A stretch of DNA of 20,096 nt. Origin: a virus. Below the pieces are notes generated by a model, which saw only the letters and a program-made list of their open reading frames with translations, ran no database searches and was not told the origin of the DNA. Positions 12,866-16,832 of the stretch are shown piece by piece. A program made the position numbers and the translations under genes. Positions within the stretch are counted from its first letter, which is position 1. Every line of letters begins with the position of its first letter. Location: UHGV virus genome UHGV-1724231, one strand, 5' to 3'.

Positions 12866-15241
12866 ATGGCTGAATATAAGCTAAGTGAGCTAAACAGTAT
12901 TGACACAGTTCGCTCAGAAGATTTACTTCACCTAAGAGTTATCAAAAGGTCTGATATGCTTGGTGATGAAGACCGTAAAATGACCTATGCAAATTTCCTT
13001 GCCTCTTTCAAACTAGAAAGATTCTTACAACTAACTGGTGGAGATATGGTAGGGAATCTTGGCATCGTTAAATTAAGATACGGTGGAAAAGACTTATTAG
13101 ACCCAACAGGTTCTTCTGAGGTTATTCTTGGTGATACTGCCAAAACCTTTAGAATTAATGCGAGTGCTTTAAGATTAACTGTAAACGATGCCACAAGGTC
13201 TGCAACAGTTTATCACACACTTAATAAACCATCTCCTAATGAATTAGGTATGAGAACTAATACTGAAAATGATACAAGATATGCTATGAAGGAAACTGAA
13301 AATACTTTCTTGGCAAGACAAATCATTAATATCAACGGTGTTGGTCTAACACTTAAAAGCATCTTACCAGATGGTGGAGCATATATTGAAGCAAGGGATT
13401 CAAATAATGCTTTAAGATTCACAGTTGGTAACTTGACTTCTAGTACTGATGTTACATTAGTTAATAGTAAGGGTGCTACGTTGACTCTTGGCACAAACTC
13501 TGTTAGTGTTGATAAGAATTTTGAAATCAATGGTCAGGTTCAGCCTAATAACTGGAATAACCTTGATGCAAGATTCTTTACACAGACTGCTGCTGACCAG
13601 AGATTTGCAAAACTTAATGCAAGTAATAACTTTATTGGGGTTAACAACTTCAATGGTAAGACTTATGTTATTGCAGATAGTAATGCACTTAACTTAAGAG
13701 CGGTTACAGAGAATGCTGCATTATTTATGCGTGGTTATAACAGTGCTGGGACAGGAACTTGGTATGTAGGTCAGCCAGATGGTACACAGTCTGAGATTGT
13801 TTTAGCAAACCAGATGACAAATGTTAACTTGAAAATTGCTACAGAGTTTTCATTTAACAAAGCTATCAATGTAGCTGGTCAGGTAAAACCAAGTGACTTT
13901 TCTAACTTTGATACAAGATATGTTCCAAGCTCTTTGACGAACGTTCTTGCAAGAACTAATGCTGCAAACGTTTTTACTAGTCCACAGACTATCAATACTG
14001 ACAGCGACAATCCTTTTAGACTACAGGCAACAGCACAAGACTCTGGAATCTACATGTCTGCACATAATGCTAATGGGAGCAGGAGATGGTGGTTGGGTAT
14101 TGGTGATGCTGGTCAAAACAATGTGGTACTTAACAATGATGTAACAGGAAAGGCAATCAATATTGGTACTGATTTAGATGTGAATACACATGTGAATATT
14201 GTTGGACAAGTAAGACCAAGCGATTGGTCAAACTTTGACTCAAGATACTACACACAATCTGCTTCAAACTCAAGATATATGTTGTCTGGTGTATCTGGAA
14301 CGGGAACAGAAGTTGGTGATACAACAGGTATTGCTTGGAATTCAAAAACAGGTTTGTACAGTGTTACAAATTCAACTGGTGGGTCTACTCACTTAGTTTA
14401 CCAAATGTACCTTGGAGTTGGTGCATCTACACCGACTGCACAGTTTAAATTTAACTACAAGAATACTGGAATCTATTATAGAACAGCAAGGGATGGATTT
14501 GGTTTTGAAGAGGTTTGGGCTAAAATCTACACAGACCAAGACAAACCTACACCCTCTGAACTTGGTGCTTACACCAAGGCTGAAGTAGACCAACGTATTG
14601 CTTCCGCTGTAACTGATGCTACAGACCTTAAGAAAGTGTATCCAGTTGGTATTGTGACGTTCTTTGCTTCTAATGTCAACCCAAATACAGCTTTCCCAGG
14701 CACTACTTGGACTTACTTAACTGAGGGTGCAAACAGAACTATTAGGATTGGTTCTGAAAATGGCTCTGATGTGAAAGGTCTTGGTGGTGCTGATACGGTT
14801 GCATTAAGTGTTGGTCACATCCCTGCACACACTCACGGCTTCTCTGGGACAACTTCTTGGTTTGACTATGGAACTAAGTACACAGATGGTCAGGGTGCTC
14901 ACGACCATGACAGAGGTAATATGGAAATCTCTGGTAACTTTGGATGGTTTAGAAGTGATAATAACTCGTTCTACGTTGCAGACGGTGCTTTTGCAATGAG
15001 TGGTAGCCAAGGTGGGCATAGCTGGACAGGTTCTAACTTCACTTATGGTGCGCCAGTTAACTTCTATGCTTCCAGAACTTGGACAGGTAGAACAAGTTGG
15101 GTAGGTGCTCATGCCCACGGTGTAGGTATTGGTGGACACAACCACACATTCAGTGGTGACACTGGTGCGACTGGTTCTGGTGCAGCATTCAGTGTTCTTA
15201 ACACTTACATTAAACTAATGGCTTGGGTAAGAACTGCATAA
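12866..15241 (+). CDS. Tail fibre protein (large, receptor-binding candidate)
   Basis: 791-aa ORF with AAGAGGA RBS; about four tandem ~110-aa repeat modules; His-rich C-terminal tip (HIPAHTHG, AHDHD, AHAHG, GHNHT). Confidence 0.7.
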   Translation: MAEYKLSELNSIDTVRSEDLLHLRVIKRSDMLGDEDRKMTYANFLASFKLERFLQLTGGDMVGNLGIVKLRYGGKDLLDPTGSSEVILGDTAKTFRINASALRLTVNDATRSATVYHTLNKPSPNELGMRTNTENDTRYAMKETENTFLARQIININGVGLTLKSILPDGGAYIEARDSNNALRFTVGNLTSSTDVTLVNSKGATLTLGTNSVSVDKNFEINGQVQPNNWNNLDARFFTQTAADQRFAKLNASNNFIGVNNFNGKTYVIADSNALNLRAVTENAALFMRGYNSAGTGTWYVGQPDGTQSEIVLANQMTNVNLKIATEFSFNKAINVAGQVKPSDFSNFDTRYVPSSLTNVLARTNAANVFTSPQTINTDSDNPFRLQATAQDSGIYMSAHNANGSRRWWLGIGDAGQNNVVLNNDVTGKAINIGTDLDVNTHVNIVGQVRPSDWSNFDSRYYTQSASNSRYMLSGVSGTGTEVGDTTGIAWNSKTGLYSVTNSTGGSTHLVYQMYLGVGASTPTAQFKFNYKNTGIYYRTARDGFGFEEVWAKIYTDQDKPTPSELGAYTKAEVDQRIASAVTDATDLKKVYPVGIVTFFASNVNPNTAFPGTTWTYLTEGANRTIRIGSENGSDVKGLGGADTVALSVGHIPAHTHGFSGTTSWFDYGTKYTDGQGAHDHDRGNMEISGNFGWFRSDNNSFYVADGAFAMSGSQGGHSWTGSNFTYGAPVNFYASRTWTGRTSWVGAHAHGVGIGGHNHTFSGDTGATGSGAAFSVLNTYIKLMAWVRTA

Positions 15242-15249
15242 TTACCTTA

Positions 15250-15278
15250 TTGACTAACTGTCAAGATGGTGTTAATAT
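15250..15278 (+). promoter_or_regulatory. Sigma70-like promoter (TTGACT-N17-TAATAT)
   Basis: -35 TTGACT at 15250-15255, 17-nt spacer, -10 TAATAT at 15273-15278; lies in the gap after the fibre gene, about 50 nt upstream of ATG 15328. Confidence 0.5.
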
Positions 15279-15327
15279 TTCTTAGTAGGTATTCTCACCA
15301 TCTTGGCTCAAGAAGTAAGGTGATTAA

Positions 15328-15522
15328 ATGCCAACCATTCTAGCAATCCTCTTGAAAAATCTTGGGGCATTCTTCTGGAAGCTTCTACTTTCTCTTCTTA
15401 GCGAATATATGATTGAAAAAGTGTTCTTCAAGCTTGCAAGATACCTTGCGAGTAAAACAGACACACCTATTGATGATGAATTTGTAGATACCTTGGAAAA
15501 GGCTTTTAAGGGTGAAAAATAA
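15328..15522 (+). CDS. Small hydrophobic/amphipathic protein (holin- or membrane-associated candidate)
   Basis: 64-aa ORF with a hydrophobic N-terminal half (ILAILLKNLGAFFWKLLLSLL) and charged C-terminus; AAGG RBS; stop overlaps the next start. Confidence 0.45.
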   Translation: MPTILAILLKNLGAFFWKLLLSLLSEYMIEKVFFKLARYLASKTDTPIDDEFVDTLEKAFKGEK

Positions 15523-15896
15523 TGAAGTGGATTGAAGAGGCTTTTAAGAACAACATTGGTGCAATTGTTGTAGGTATTTTCAGTGTAATTGGTATGTACA
15601 CTACGATGCAGGTCTCTGATGGAAAGCAAGAAGTTTCTATAAACACAAAGTTACAACAGTTGGATGGTTACTCAAAAGGTAACTATTCAGCTATTCGTGA
15701 TTTACAGTCTGATATGAAACTCCTTCAGTTAGGGATGGAGAACCAGAAAGTGCAGCTAGAGAACGTTAAAGGGGAAAACGCTAAGTTGACCAAAACCCTT
15801 GATAAATTCTCAGATAGTGTGAACAACTTAGCACAGTCTGTATCAGCTTTACAAGCAATTACCGAACAAAATACACAGAATGCTAAAAAGAAATAA
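15522..15896 (+). CDS. Membrane-anchored coiled-coil protein (i-spanin-like candidate)
   Basis: 124-aa ORF with one N-terminal transmembrane segment (IGAIVVGIFSVIGMY) followed by a heptad-like Q/L/K/E-rich region; followed by a terminator. Confidence 0.45.
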   Translation: MKWIEEAFKNNIGAIVVGIFSVIGMYTTMQVSDGKQEVSINTKLQQLDGYSKGNYSAIRDLQSDMKLLQLGMENQKVQLENVKGENAKLTKTLDKFSDSVNNLAQSVSALQAITEQNTQNAKKK

Positions 15897-15900
15897 TGCT

Positions 15901-15928
15901 AAGGCTCCCGTAAAAAGGAGCCTTTTTT
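15901..15928. terminator. Bidirectional rho-independent terminator between convergent transcription units
   Basis: AAGGCTCC-loop-GGAGCCTT stem followed by TTTTTT on + strand; on the - strand the same hairpin lies just 3' of the thymidylate synthase stop and is followed by a U-rich tract. Confidence 0.7.
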
Positions 15929-15932
15929 GTAT

Positions 15933-16832
15933 CTACTTACCTACTGACAATGGAGCTTCAATCTTACCAGCATGTCGGTAATCTTTCAAGCCACCTATAA
16001 AGTCACTTGCTGTTAAGTGCTTCAGGTCACCAATACTGTTTAACTCAATATCAATATCAAACTTCGGTGCTGGGAACTCTTCGTTACCTAACAACTGATA
16101 GACTTGCTGCATATGGTTCAGGTAAATCTGGGTATCACCAAAAGTACCAACCAGATAACGTGGAGTTAAACCTGTCATCTTACAAAGCACATGTAGGATA
16201 AACCCATAAGATGCAATATTAAAGGGCAAACCTAAAAATGTGTCGCATGAACGCTGATACCATTTCAAGTCAACCTCTCCAGTATTCGAGATATAAATCT
16301 GGAAAAGTACATGACAAGGGGCTAATGCCATAGAGTTGCTTGAGATATCTGCTGCATTCCATGCGTTAACCAGCATGTAACGGTCTGTAGGAGACTTTTT
16401 CATCTTATCCACAAGATTACTCAACTGGTCAACGACAACCCCACCATGCCCCTCAAAAGCCCTCCATTGGACACCATAGATTCGTCCACCTGCATCTTCC
16501 AACCAATCATTTTCAGTTGCATAGGTTGTCTTTAACCAACGTTCAAAATCATCTGTCCAGATAGTCCAACGCTCTCCATCGTTCTCTCCCCAAGTTCTGT
16601 AACGTAAATCACCCAACTTGTTTTCACCATTCAAAAACCACAATGCTTCACCTAAAACTTGACGCATGAAGGTTTGCTTTGAAGTGATTAATGGGAAACC
16701 ACTACGCATGTCAAAACGAAACTCTGGAGGTGCAAACGTTGTAACAACCTTTCCAGTTCTTGTTTTACGTTCTTCCCCAACAGAAAGAACATGGTTGAGA
16801 ATCCCTTTGTAACTTATATCTGCTTGTGACAT
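15933..16832 (-). CDS. thyA: Thymidylate synthase (ThyA family)
   Basis: 299-aa ORF with ThyA hallmark motifs: RTG…GFPL(I/V)T(S/T)K, ALAPCH (catalytic Cys), YQRSCD-FLGLPFNIASY (Asn in FNIAS indicates dUMP specificity); AGAGGA RBS. Confidence 0.85.
   Translation of the reverse strand: MSQADISYKGILNHVLSVGEERKTRTGKVVTTFAPPEFRFDMRSGFPLITSKQTFMRQVLGEALWFLNGENKLGDLRYRTWGENDGERWTIWTDDFERWLKTTYATENDWLEDAGGRIYGVQWRAFEGHGGVVVDQLSNLVDKMKKSPTDRYMLVNAWNAADISSNSMALAPCHVLFQIYISNTGEVDLKWYQRSCDTFLGLPFNIASYGFILHVLCKMTGLTPRYLVGTFGDTQIYLNHMQQVYQLLGNEEFPAPKFDIDIELNSIGDLKHLTASDFIGGLKDYRHAGKIEAPLSVGK

Follow-up and report, generated by a model that had tools for sequence, protein, structure and literature searches.

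In the genome of the virus UHGV-1724231, a Mooglevirus-type (Felix O1-like) phage of the subfamily Ounavirinae, of which a stretch of 20 096 nucleotides (hereafter, the window) was analyzed, two small overlapping genes lie between the last tail fiber gene and thyA, and together they probably (at a rough estimate of 0.65) form a conserved lysis unit that closes the late tail-fiber gene cluster at its 3' end. Gene 1 (15328–15522, + strand, ATG start), which encodes a protein of 64 amino acids, belongs by profile comparison to the family of P18 (gp l), a lysis protein of phage PM2. Gene 2 (15522–15896, + strand, ATG start), which encodes 124 amino acids, is the best candidate for the holin of this phage and is already annotated in that putative role in relatives. 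The case is built from homology, synteny, selection, the contexts of related genes and a predicted RNA fold.

The finding is ordinary and essentially known. It allows the two small genes of the window to be annotated as the lysis unit of the phage, with gene 1 nameable as an accessory lysis protein of the PM2 P18 family. Diagnostics and biocontrol make use of Felix O1-like phages, whose holin is putative; P18-family proteins span corticoviruses, T4-like phages, Felix O1-like phages and many marine phages, with functional data from PM2 only. The residual interest lies in the candidate holin, in the puzzle of a P18-like factor in phages that encode spanins, and in a structured leader that is a candidate control element for lysis timing.

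The original prediction, made from the nucleotide sequence of the window, had described a self-contained, independently transcribed cassette, and its open reading frames (ORFs), promoter-like site and hairpin terminator are all recovered at the same coordinates. The observation is thus confirmed and the interpretation is partly supported, being half right: lysis is the most plausible of the roles offered, given the membership of gene 1 in the PM2 P18 family and the contexts of that family beside endolysins and holins, whereas the moron, i-spanin and exclusion readings do not hold up.

A conserved gene pair with a PM2 P18-family member

The gene 1 product matches PHROG_402, a family labeled ‘unknown function' (E-value of 1.2e-21), and so does PM2 gp l (protein P18, 51 amino acids; E-value of 8.2e-14). 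The Pfam family PF26925, with the domain name ‘Phage_PM2_Gpl', is precomputed on proteins that are 92–95% identical to the gene 1 product; scans of the product against a copy of Pfam without PF26925 and against NCBIfam give no significant match. Pairwise BLASTP alone between the gene 1 product and PM2 gp l yields nothing. When a profile of 56 diverse family members is compared with PM2 gp l using hhalign, the probability reaches 96.6% (E-value of 4.9e-10), with gp l aligned to residues 17–61 of the gene 1 product and 16 of the 45 residues identical. The Felix O1 ortholog of gene 1 is ORF78, and RB49 Dc5 is a homologue. This family assignment is already in print, although the GenBank records keep ‘hypothetical protein': a 2007 paper (PMC1950889) notes P18 homologues in PaP3, Felix O1, RB49 and several cyanophages. 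Clear homology to a characterized family had been named in the original prediction as evidence that would speak against it, and such homology is found for gene 1; because the P18 family is itself a lysis family, it refines the lysis reading and does not refute it.

In PM2, according to PMC6356626, P17 punctures the cytoplasmic membrane and P18 assists in breaking up the outer membrane, the murein being probably degraded by host factors. An exhaustive profile search yields 59 cluster representatives of the P18-like family, nearly all of them stand-alone proteins of 50–84 amino acids that carry, after a conserved helix, the motif (K/R)T-x-T/N-x-x-D-D/N-E, in which T44, D49 and D50 are near-invariant; PM2 gp l reads KSENTLDNE at this position. 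Two rare metagenomic proteins, P0179 (203 amino acids) and P0190 (101 amino acids), contain two tandem ‘A-x-x-T-E-T-x-x-DD' P18-like units, an arrangement which suggests that the helix–motif–helix element could be a self-contained module. No further phage isolates are retrieved by tblastn with two metagenomic family members.

The description of the 64-amino acid protein as hydrophobic applies to its first third only, where there is one marginal hydrophobic segment (residues 3–21). The 19-residue Kyte–Doolittle maximum is 1.66 in this protein, compared with a family median of 1.77 and with 1.10 in PM2 gp l. Thanks to some 13 extra hydrophobic N-terminal residues, the gene 1 product departs from the ‘no transmembrane domain' trait described for gp l. 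PM2 gp l is a short outlier, because most members start directly with the hydrophobic helix, and membrane anchoring of most P18-family members appears likely. The AlphaFold2 model of the gene 1 product (predicted local distance difference test score, pLDDT, of 74) consists of a helix at residues 3–43, a turn at the TDTPIDD motif and a second helix at residues 50–60; the protein is net neutral, with nine K+R and nine D+E residues. Members of the family are small accessory lysis proteins in which a hydrophobic or amphipathic N-terminal helix precedes a conserved ‘(K/R)T-x-T-x-x-DDE' helix-turn-helix tail; by analogy with PM2, where P18 is needed to disrupt the outer membrane once the cytoplasmic membrane has been breached, gene 1 may act at the outer membrane.

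The role of the family can also be gleaned from its gene neighborhoods outside Ounavirinae, which were surveyed before the Pfam family name was known. In Vibrio phages, marine viral contigs and prophages of Gammaproteobacteria, the family gene lies directly downstream of a peptidoglycan hydrolase, and these hydrolases come from five Pfam families: lysozyme-like (locus L005) or Phage_lysozyme (prophages L125–127), Peptidase_M15_4, GH108 with PG_binding_3, Peptidase_M15_3, and VanY. A lysis factor that acts on membranes would be expected to associate in this way with endolysins of unrelated enzymology. In RB49, JSE and related Krischvirus contigs, the family gene (dc5 in RB49) is located between the distal fiber gene (or gp38) and the T4-type holin gene t; in PM2, the late operon ends with two overlapping genes, namely k, which encodes the holin with its N-terminal transmembrane domain (TMD) and short coiled coil, and l; in loci L100–102, the family gene is flanked by a lipoprotein gene and a gene for a coiled-coil protein with an N-terminal transmembrane segment, a spanin-like pair. 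A second small single-pass membrane protein is encoded next to the family member, or one to two genes away, in at least seven phage groups. Three loci in marine contigs (L061, L110 and L111) have the same layout as the window, with an M15_3 peptidase gene, the family member and then, after a 1-nucleotide overlap, a gene for a coiled-coil protein of 109–110 amino acids with an N-terminal transmembrane segment. Downstream of these three genes comes an ORF of 38–54 amino acids that is very rich in lysine (e.g. MAKKKKLGKVVVKKKNGKAEVKKK...; 4502–4666 in L061, 3128–3247 in L110 and 3502–3618 in L111), the composition of which is such that it could encode a cationic membrane-active peptide of the same lysis unit.

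Within Ounavirinae, the gene pair is highly conserved. The 761-nucleotide region that contains it is 98.8% identical to the corresponding region of the Shigella phages ESh21 and ESh22 and shares at least 80% identity with 252 phage records, all of them Felix O1-like (Mooglevirus, Felixounavirus and Suspvirus); with tblastn, the 124-amino acid protein matches 297 records and the 64-amino acid protein 397. The pair occupies the interval between the last fiber gene and thyA in the Citrobacter phages Mijalis and Michonne, the Shigella phages Sf18 and Sf14, Bas63 (Escherichia coli), Felix O1, the Erwinia phage Pistou and a Hafnia phage, and its position is constant in all Ounavirinae lineages examined, even when the upstream fiber genes are unrelated. 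In both genes, the identity is 0.92–0.98 at codon positions 1 and 2 compared with 0.56–0.85 at position 3, a pattern which indicates that both ORFs are real genes under strong purifying selection.

These features bear directly on the proposal of a moron-type insertion, that is, a horizontally acquired promoter–gene–terminator unit that would confer an accessory trait. A promoter-like site and a terminator do flank the pair, and lysis genes are exchanged between phage lineages according to PMC1950889. The distribution already contradicts this origin, however, because the pair is found subfamily-wide in a constant place; its GC content (0.36–0.39) equals that of the surrounding background, and the promoter-like site is absent from the Erwinia and Hafnia relatives. 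Given this fixed position, background composition and purifying selection, the pair belongs to the core of these genomes, and a moron is the least credible of the explanations considered here.

Gene 2 as a candidate holin, and alternative roles

The gene 2 product contains one marginal Gly/Ser/Thr-rich hydrophobic segment (residues 11–29; Kyte–Doolittle value of 1.62), followed by 95 C-terminal residues. AlphaFold2 predicts helices at residues 2–30 and 40–47 and one long helix at 54–123 (pLDDT of about 75 in the long helix and 59 overall), which bears out the N-terminal hydrophobic helix and long helical region originally predicted. The charges on the two sides of the hydrophobic segment are balanced and so do not set its orientation. 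The protein belongs to PHROG_4038, a family confined to Ounavirinae, and is orthologous to Felix O1 ORF79; the homologues in Erwinia and Hafnia phages show 26–30% identity (tblastn), and the best-conserved part of the family is LDK(F/L)(S/T)(D/E)S(V/I)N-x-L-x(3)-VS. A search of a large protein collection returns, among the matches listed, only relatives with at least 90% identity. Sequences that are 90–93% identical to the 124-amino acid protein also occur in GU169904.1 (Staphylococcus phage SA1), in two ‘Campylobacter' phage records and in proteins labeled Staphylococcus hyicus and Phocaeicola plebeius, where contamination or chimeric assembly is more likely than a real host range.

Searches of the Protein Data Bank with both proteins of the pair return nothing significant, the best matches of gene 2, to coronavirus S2 heptad-repeat constructs (E-values of 0.16–0.4), being treated as coiled-coil noise, and Pfam and NCBIfam scans of both proteins give only sub-threshold noise of the same kind. 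Homology between gene 2 and the 110-amino acid neighbor in L061 was considered and rejected (E-value of 0.055).

The homologue of gene 2 is annotated as a ‘putative (class III) holin' in the records of Moogle, Michonne, Mijalis and Sf14. The Center for Phage Technology, a group specialized in phage lysis, uses this annotation and describes the putative holin, the two spanins (inner and outer) and the lysozyme as encoded at scattered sites in these genomes. In Michonne, the lysozyme gene is found at 68.4 kb and an overlapped pair of inner and outer spanin (i-spanin and o-spanin) genes at 86.4–86.9 kb; the spanin pair of the relatives lies near rIIB, and its family is represented in 320 phage records. 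The gene 2 product would span the membrane once, in a predicted N-in/C-out orientation and with a long helix in the periplasm, and would serve as the holin through which the soluble lysozyme, the gene of which lies at another site in the genome, is released. In this capacity, it would hold the place of the T4-type holin t in RB49-like phages, with an architecture like that of the PM2 holin P17.

An N-terminal TMD followed by a helical periplasmic domain is also the architecture of an i-spanin, and the two genes could alternatively form an outer-envelope module, with gene 2 and the P18-like protein acting at the periplasm and the outer membrane as a lipoprotein-less spanin-like or tethering device and with the true holin being another small membrane protein. 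A comparable neighbor in L095 weakly matches Rz-like spanin PHROGs, the published role of P18 (PMC6356626) is at the outer membrane, the Felix O1 paper offers four other holin candidates, and the two genes appear translationally coupled. No Rz-like model matches gene 2, however, and no lipoprotein ORF is embedded in it or adjoins it: as originally predicted, an o-spanin gene is missing, the longest alternative-frame ORF found in a dedicated check having 17 amino acids and no lipobox. The same search for a lipoprotein ORF near gene 2 turns up a 33-amino acid ORF (15880–15981) that runs through the terminator. Moreover, a conventional overlapped i-/o-spanin pair is present elsewhere in the relatives, which weakens the i-spanin reading; a bona fide holin family holds the equivalent position in RB49-like phages; and the partner of gp l in PM2 is a holin. 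An outer-envelope module is improbable, even if it ranks ahead of the other alternatives.

The assignment of the pair to lysis, with gene 2 as the holin, faces several objections. The holin call is made from topology and position only, as no holin or Rz-like spanin model in Pfam, NCBIfam or PHROGs matches gene 2. There is no BLASTP alignment between gene 2 and T of JSE, and the two belong to different PHROGs (PHROG_4038 and PHROG_860, respectively); likewise, the hhalign comparison with PM2 P17 gives a probability of 0.3%, and the PHROGs differ. The annotators of the BASEL collection left both Bas63 genes ‘hypothetical', no holin is named in the approximately 53 kb of the Bas63 record that cover the endolysin and spanin regions, gp79 is but one of five holin candidates in the Felix O1 paper, with four others listed, and literature searches found no experimental report on either protein from any Ounavirinae phage. 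With regard to gene 1, PM2 gp l does not have the N-terminal hydrophobic stretch that the gene 1 product carries, a P18-like outer-membrane factor looks redundant because the relatives already encode an i-/o-spanin pair, and in Grimontviridae and Lahexavirus the family member is found among head and tail genes, with no recognizable lysis genes beside it.

The remaining two objections come from expression and proteomics. In Felix O1, end-point reverse transcription polymerase chain reaction (RT-PCR) maxima were reported at 5 min for ORF79, 25 min for ORF78 and 60 min for the fiber ORFs 76 and 77. Maxima at 5 and 25 min are early for lysis genes, and a separate promoter would fit this timing; the evidence is weak, as the major capsid gene likewise appears in the 5-min class of that table. 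A literature search found no RNA sequencing or transcript-start study of a Felix O1-like phage. Early expression from a promoter read by the host polymerase would befit a membrane pair for superinfection exclusion or envelope protection, following the logic of T4 Imm and Sp or of T5 Llp, the gene of which adjoins the receptor-binding gene; the conserved sigma-70-like site, the location directly 3' of the receptor-binding fiber gene and the small size and membrane nature of both products fit such a function. As against this, gene 1 is homologous to a lysis family whose members repeatedly adjoin endolysin and holin genes in unrelated phages, the pair stays unchanged while the upstream fiber gene is swapped, and the RT-PCR data are end-point and internally odd. 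The original suggestion of an exclusion or anti-defense role finds no positive evidence, PADLOC returning nothing meaningful (one sub-threshold coiled-coil match, with an E-value of 0.006), and this role is quite unlikely.

The proteomic objection stems from a cryo-electron microscopy study of Sf14 (PMC11821841, Table 1), in which gp55 (FDI99_gp102), the 124-amino acid homologue of gene 2, is listed as ‘Holin or lysozyme' and was detected by mass spectrometry in particle preparations. This signal would fit a reading of the two products as virion-associated or fiber-assembly factors, in line with the position of the genes at the close of the structural operon and with the presence of family members amid the head and tail genes of Grimontviridae and Lahexavirus. 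The Sf14 sample was, however, a pelleted phage stock precipitated with trichloroacetic acid (PMC11821841), in which membrane debris is plausible, and neither product is placed in the Sf14 structure; gp78 and gp79 were not detected in Felix O1 virions banded twice in caesium chloride, and gene 1 belongs to a lysis family. Probably, the Sf14 signal reflects membrane carry-over, and a virion or assembly role is very unlikely.

Structured leader, promoter-like site and terminator

On the + strand, the run of tail and baseplate genes closes with the gene for a tail fiber of 791 amino acids (12866–15241, with the stop codon TAA at 15239–15241), which is separated from gene 1 by a spacer of 86 nucleotides (15242–15327, + strand). 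Genes 1 and 2 overlap by one base (TAATG), an overlap from which translational coupling of gene 2 to gene 1 can be inferred. The convergent thyA gene (15933–16832, − strand) follows, with the frd genes further on. The last 303 nucleotides of the fiber gene (14940–15241) are 0.51–0.55 identical to the counterparts in Mijalis and Michonne and 0.88 identical to that in Sf14. From one base past the fiber stop codon, the spacer is 0.97–0.99 identical to those of Mijalis and Michonne, so that there is a sharp mosaic boundary. By this comparison, the fiber tip is swapped while the cassette stays, and the boundary at the fiber stop codon suggests exchange of host-range modules with a breakpoint at the structured leader. 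The C-terminal part of the fiber (approximately 14750–15160) contains repeated His-x-His motifs (HIPAHTHGFSG, GAHDHDRG and GAHAHGVGIGGHNHTFSG) that resemble the metal-binding repeats of T4 gp37-type tips; the distal fiber tip of Sf14 is likewise gp37-like (PMC11821841).

The spacer contains a sigma-70-like promoter candidate, TTGACT-N17-TAATAT (15250–15255 and 15273–15278, + strand), with a TG extension (15270–15271) and a predicted start at about 15284–15286. Although the hexamers are present, ‘near-consensus' overstates the case: the site matches 9 of the 12 consensus positions, and a 5-kb scan finds 10 such sites compared with 12.4 expected by chance, so that by itself the match has no significance. 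Support for the promoter region comes from conservation: among 16 distinct variants of the intergenic region, drawn from Felixounavirus, Mooglevirus and Suspvirus relatives, 14 carry both hexamers unchanged. In the Erwinia and Hafnia relatives, the interval between the fiber gene and gene 1 has no comparable hexamer pair; where the phages of E. coli, Salmonella, Shigella and Citrobacter carry the promoter-like site and the long structure, it contains a canonical hairpin with a T-run that ends some 20–30 nucleotides before the start codon, without room for a downstream promoter (2892–3000 in L009, Erwinia phage Pistou, and 1277–1329 in L010, the Hafnia phage). The separate transcript that had been proposed is thus possible, given the conserved hexamers and the difference in RT-PCR timing between the pair and the fiber ORFs of Felix O1, but the promoter pair does not extend to the Erwinia and Hafnia phages. 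The identity of the spacer to Felixounavirus is 0.78, compared with 0.56–0.62 at the third codon positions of both genes, a difference which indicates that the spacer is itself under selection.

The RNA from the fiber stop codon to the start codon of gene 1 (15236..15331, + strand) is predicted to form a structured leader. Its outer stem (15236–15251 with 15314–15331) includes the Shine–Dalgarno (SD) sequence AGGTGA (15318–15323) and the ATG, an inner stem of 12 bp pairs 15260–15271 with 15296–15307, and the apical stem (15274–15280 with 15287–15293) contains the -10 hexamer. The segment 15236–15335 folds to −39.2 kcal/mol (z-score of −6.5), and none of 200 shuffled sequences is as stable. Despite indels, most Moogle- and Felix-type variants have this arrangement as their minimum-energy fold, the outer stem being weakened in a few (L023, L036, L041 and L082). 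In an alignment of the 16 variants, 98.8% of the cells are paired in the consensus structure, compared with 34–59% for slid controls, and two base pairs differ in both partners, one of them, at the base of the apical stem, being U-A in Moogle and C-G in Felix; because the diversity is low, this covariation is modest support. A 25-amino acid ORF within the leader (15266–15343) was dismissed, as indels in the Felixounavirus relatives break its frame. Rfam has no match for the leader or the terminator.

The predicted probability that the gene 1 SD sequence is unpaired is 0.00 in read-through RNA and 0.17 in RNA that begins at the predicted start, where UCACC (15296–15300) pairs with it. A fold that includes the -10 region needs RNA begun upstream, and this implies read-through from the fiber gene whether or not the promoter fires. 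Expression of the lysis genes may thus be throttled, with the stable fold burying the ribosome-binding site of gene 1 in read-through transcripts from the fiber gene; to open it would take either ribosomes that terminate at the fiber stop codon or a shorter transcript from the internal sigma-70-like promoter. A partial barrier to transcription or translation before the lysis genes seems to be a conserved theme, and it would keep the lysis proteins low relative to the fiber protein.

The terminator hairpin AAGGCTCC-CGTAAAAA-GGAGCCTT, with an 8-nucleotide loop, occupies 15901–15924, the element extending to 15930 with TTTTTTG, and it is common to the fiber/lysis unit on the + strand and the thyA–frd unit on the − strand. 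The scan flags the hairpin on both strands, as the original description of a strong bidirectional terminator would have it, but the T-run is good only on the + strand. In the genome paper on Felix O1, the homologous hairpin is given as the terminators t79 and t80, with energies of −12.5 and −11.5 kcal/mol, and the Michonne and Mijalis records annotate it as a terminator. Among the relatives (L001–L097), the hairpin occurs in both orientations with the identical stem AAGGCTCC/GGAGCCTT: the loop reads CGTAAAAA in 25 loci (the window, L014, L018, L033 and others) and the reverse complement, TTTT(T)(T)ACG, in 38, and both loop forms are present within both Mooglevirus- and Felixounavirus-type genomes. 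By its distribution, this looks like recurrent inversion of the hairpin, as from template switching at a quasi-palindrome.

Comparison with known systems

A broader and distinctly more tentative proposal is that the pair represents one case of a widespread ‘PM2-type' two-component module, in which a P18-like protein and a single-pass coiled-coil protein act beside spanins or conditionally replace them, with dual-transcript control of output in Felix O1-like phages. Replacement might come into play under conditions such as an outer membrane stiffened by divalent cations. The dual-transcript device would consist of a long late mRNA that hides the ribosome-binding site in the −39 kcal/mol structure and is translated via ribosomes terminating at the fiber stop codon, and of a shorter transcript from the internal host-type promoter.

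Compared with the Rz/Rz1 spanins, the lysis unit proposed here shares the i-spanin build of gene 2 and the reported outer-membrane step of P18; it differs in that gene 2 has neither a lipoprotein partner nor a match to a spanin model, and in that the relatives have a separate spanin pair. In phage phiKT, spanins are replaced by gp28, the ‘disruptin', a small amphipathic peptide that disrupts the outer membrane. Gene 1 resembles gp28 as a small, helical, single-gene product with a proposed action at the outer membrane and a place in a lysis cassette, whereas gp28 is strongly cationic and the gene 1 product is net neutral and coexists with spanins. The PBSX proteins XhlA and XhlB, a membrane-associated coiled-coil protein and a holin, likewise amount to two small membrane proteins per lysis unit; these systems are Gram-positive, and neither protein of the window is homologous to them. 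Several P18-family genes outside Ounavirinae are preceded by genes for proteins with an N-terminal coil and a C-terminal transmembrane segment, one of which weakly matches a ‘hemolysin' (XhlA-like) PHROG.

The PM2 system (Krupovic, Daugelavicius and Bamford 2007, cited in PMC1950889 and PMC6356626) offers a sequence homologue, gene 1 and P18 sharing a Pfam and a PHROG family. In both cases, a P18-type gene overlaps the gene for a small membrane protein with an N-terminal TMD and a coiled coil at the end of a late operon. The gene order is reversed, the l-like gene coming first in the window; the gene 2 product, at 124 amino acids, exceeds P17 more than twofold in size, with no homology detectable between the two; and Ounavirinae encode an endolysin and spanins, whereas PM2 is reported to be without both.

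The T4-type holin T differs from gene 2 in having a globular periplasmic domain of approximately 160 residues in place of one predicted long helix, and gene 2 has no known link to an antiholin of the RI or RIII type. Nevertheless, in both proteins the only hydrophobic segment lies close to the N terminus, and the gene order gp37-(gp38)-Dc5-t in RB49 and JSE follows the same logic as the window: fiber gene or genes, a P18-family gene, a gene for a single-pass protein with a large C-terminal domain, and then a convergent early unit.

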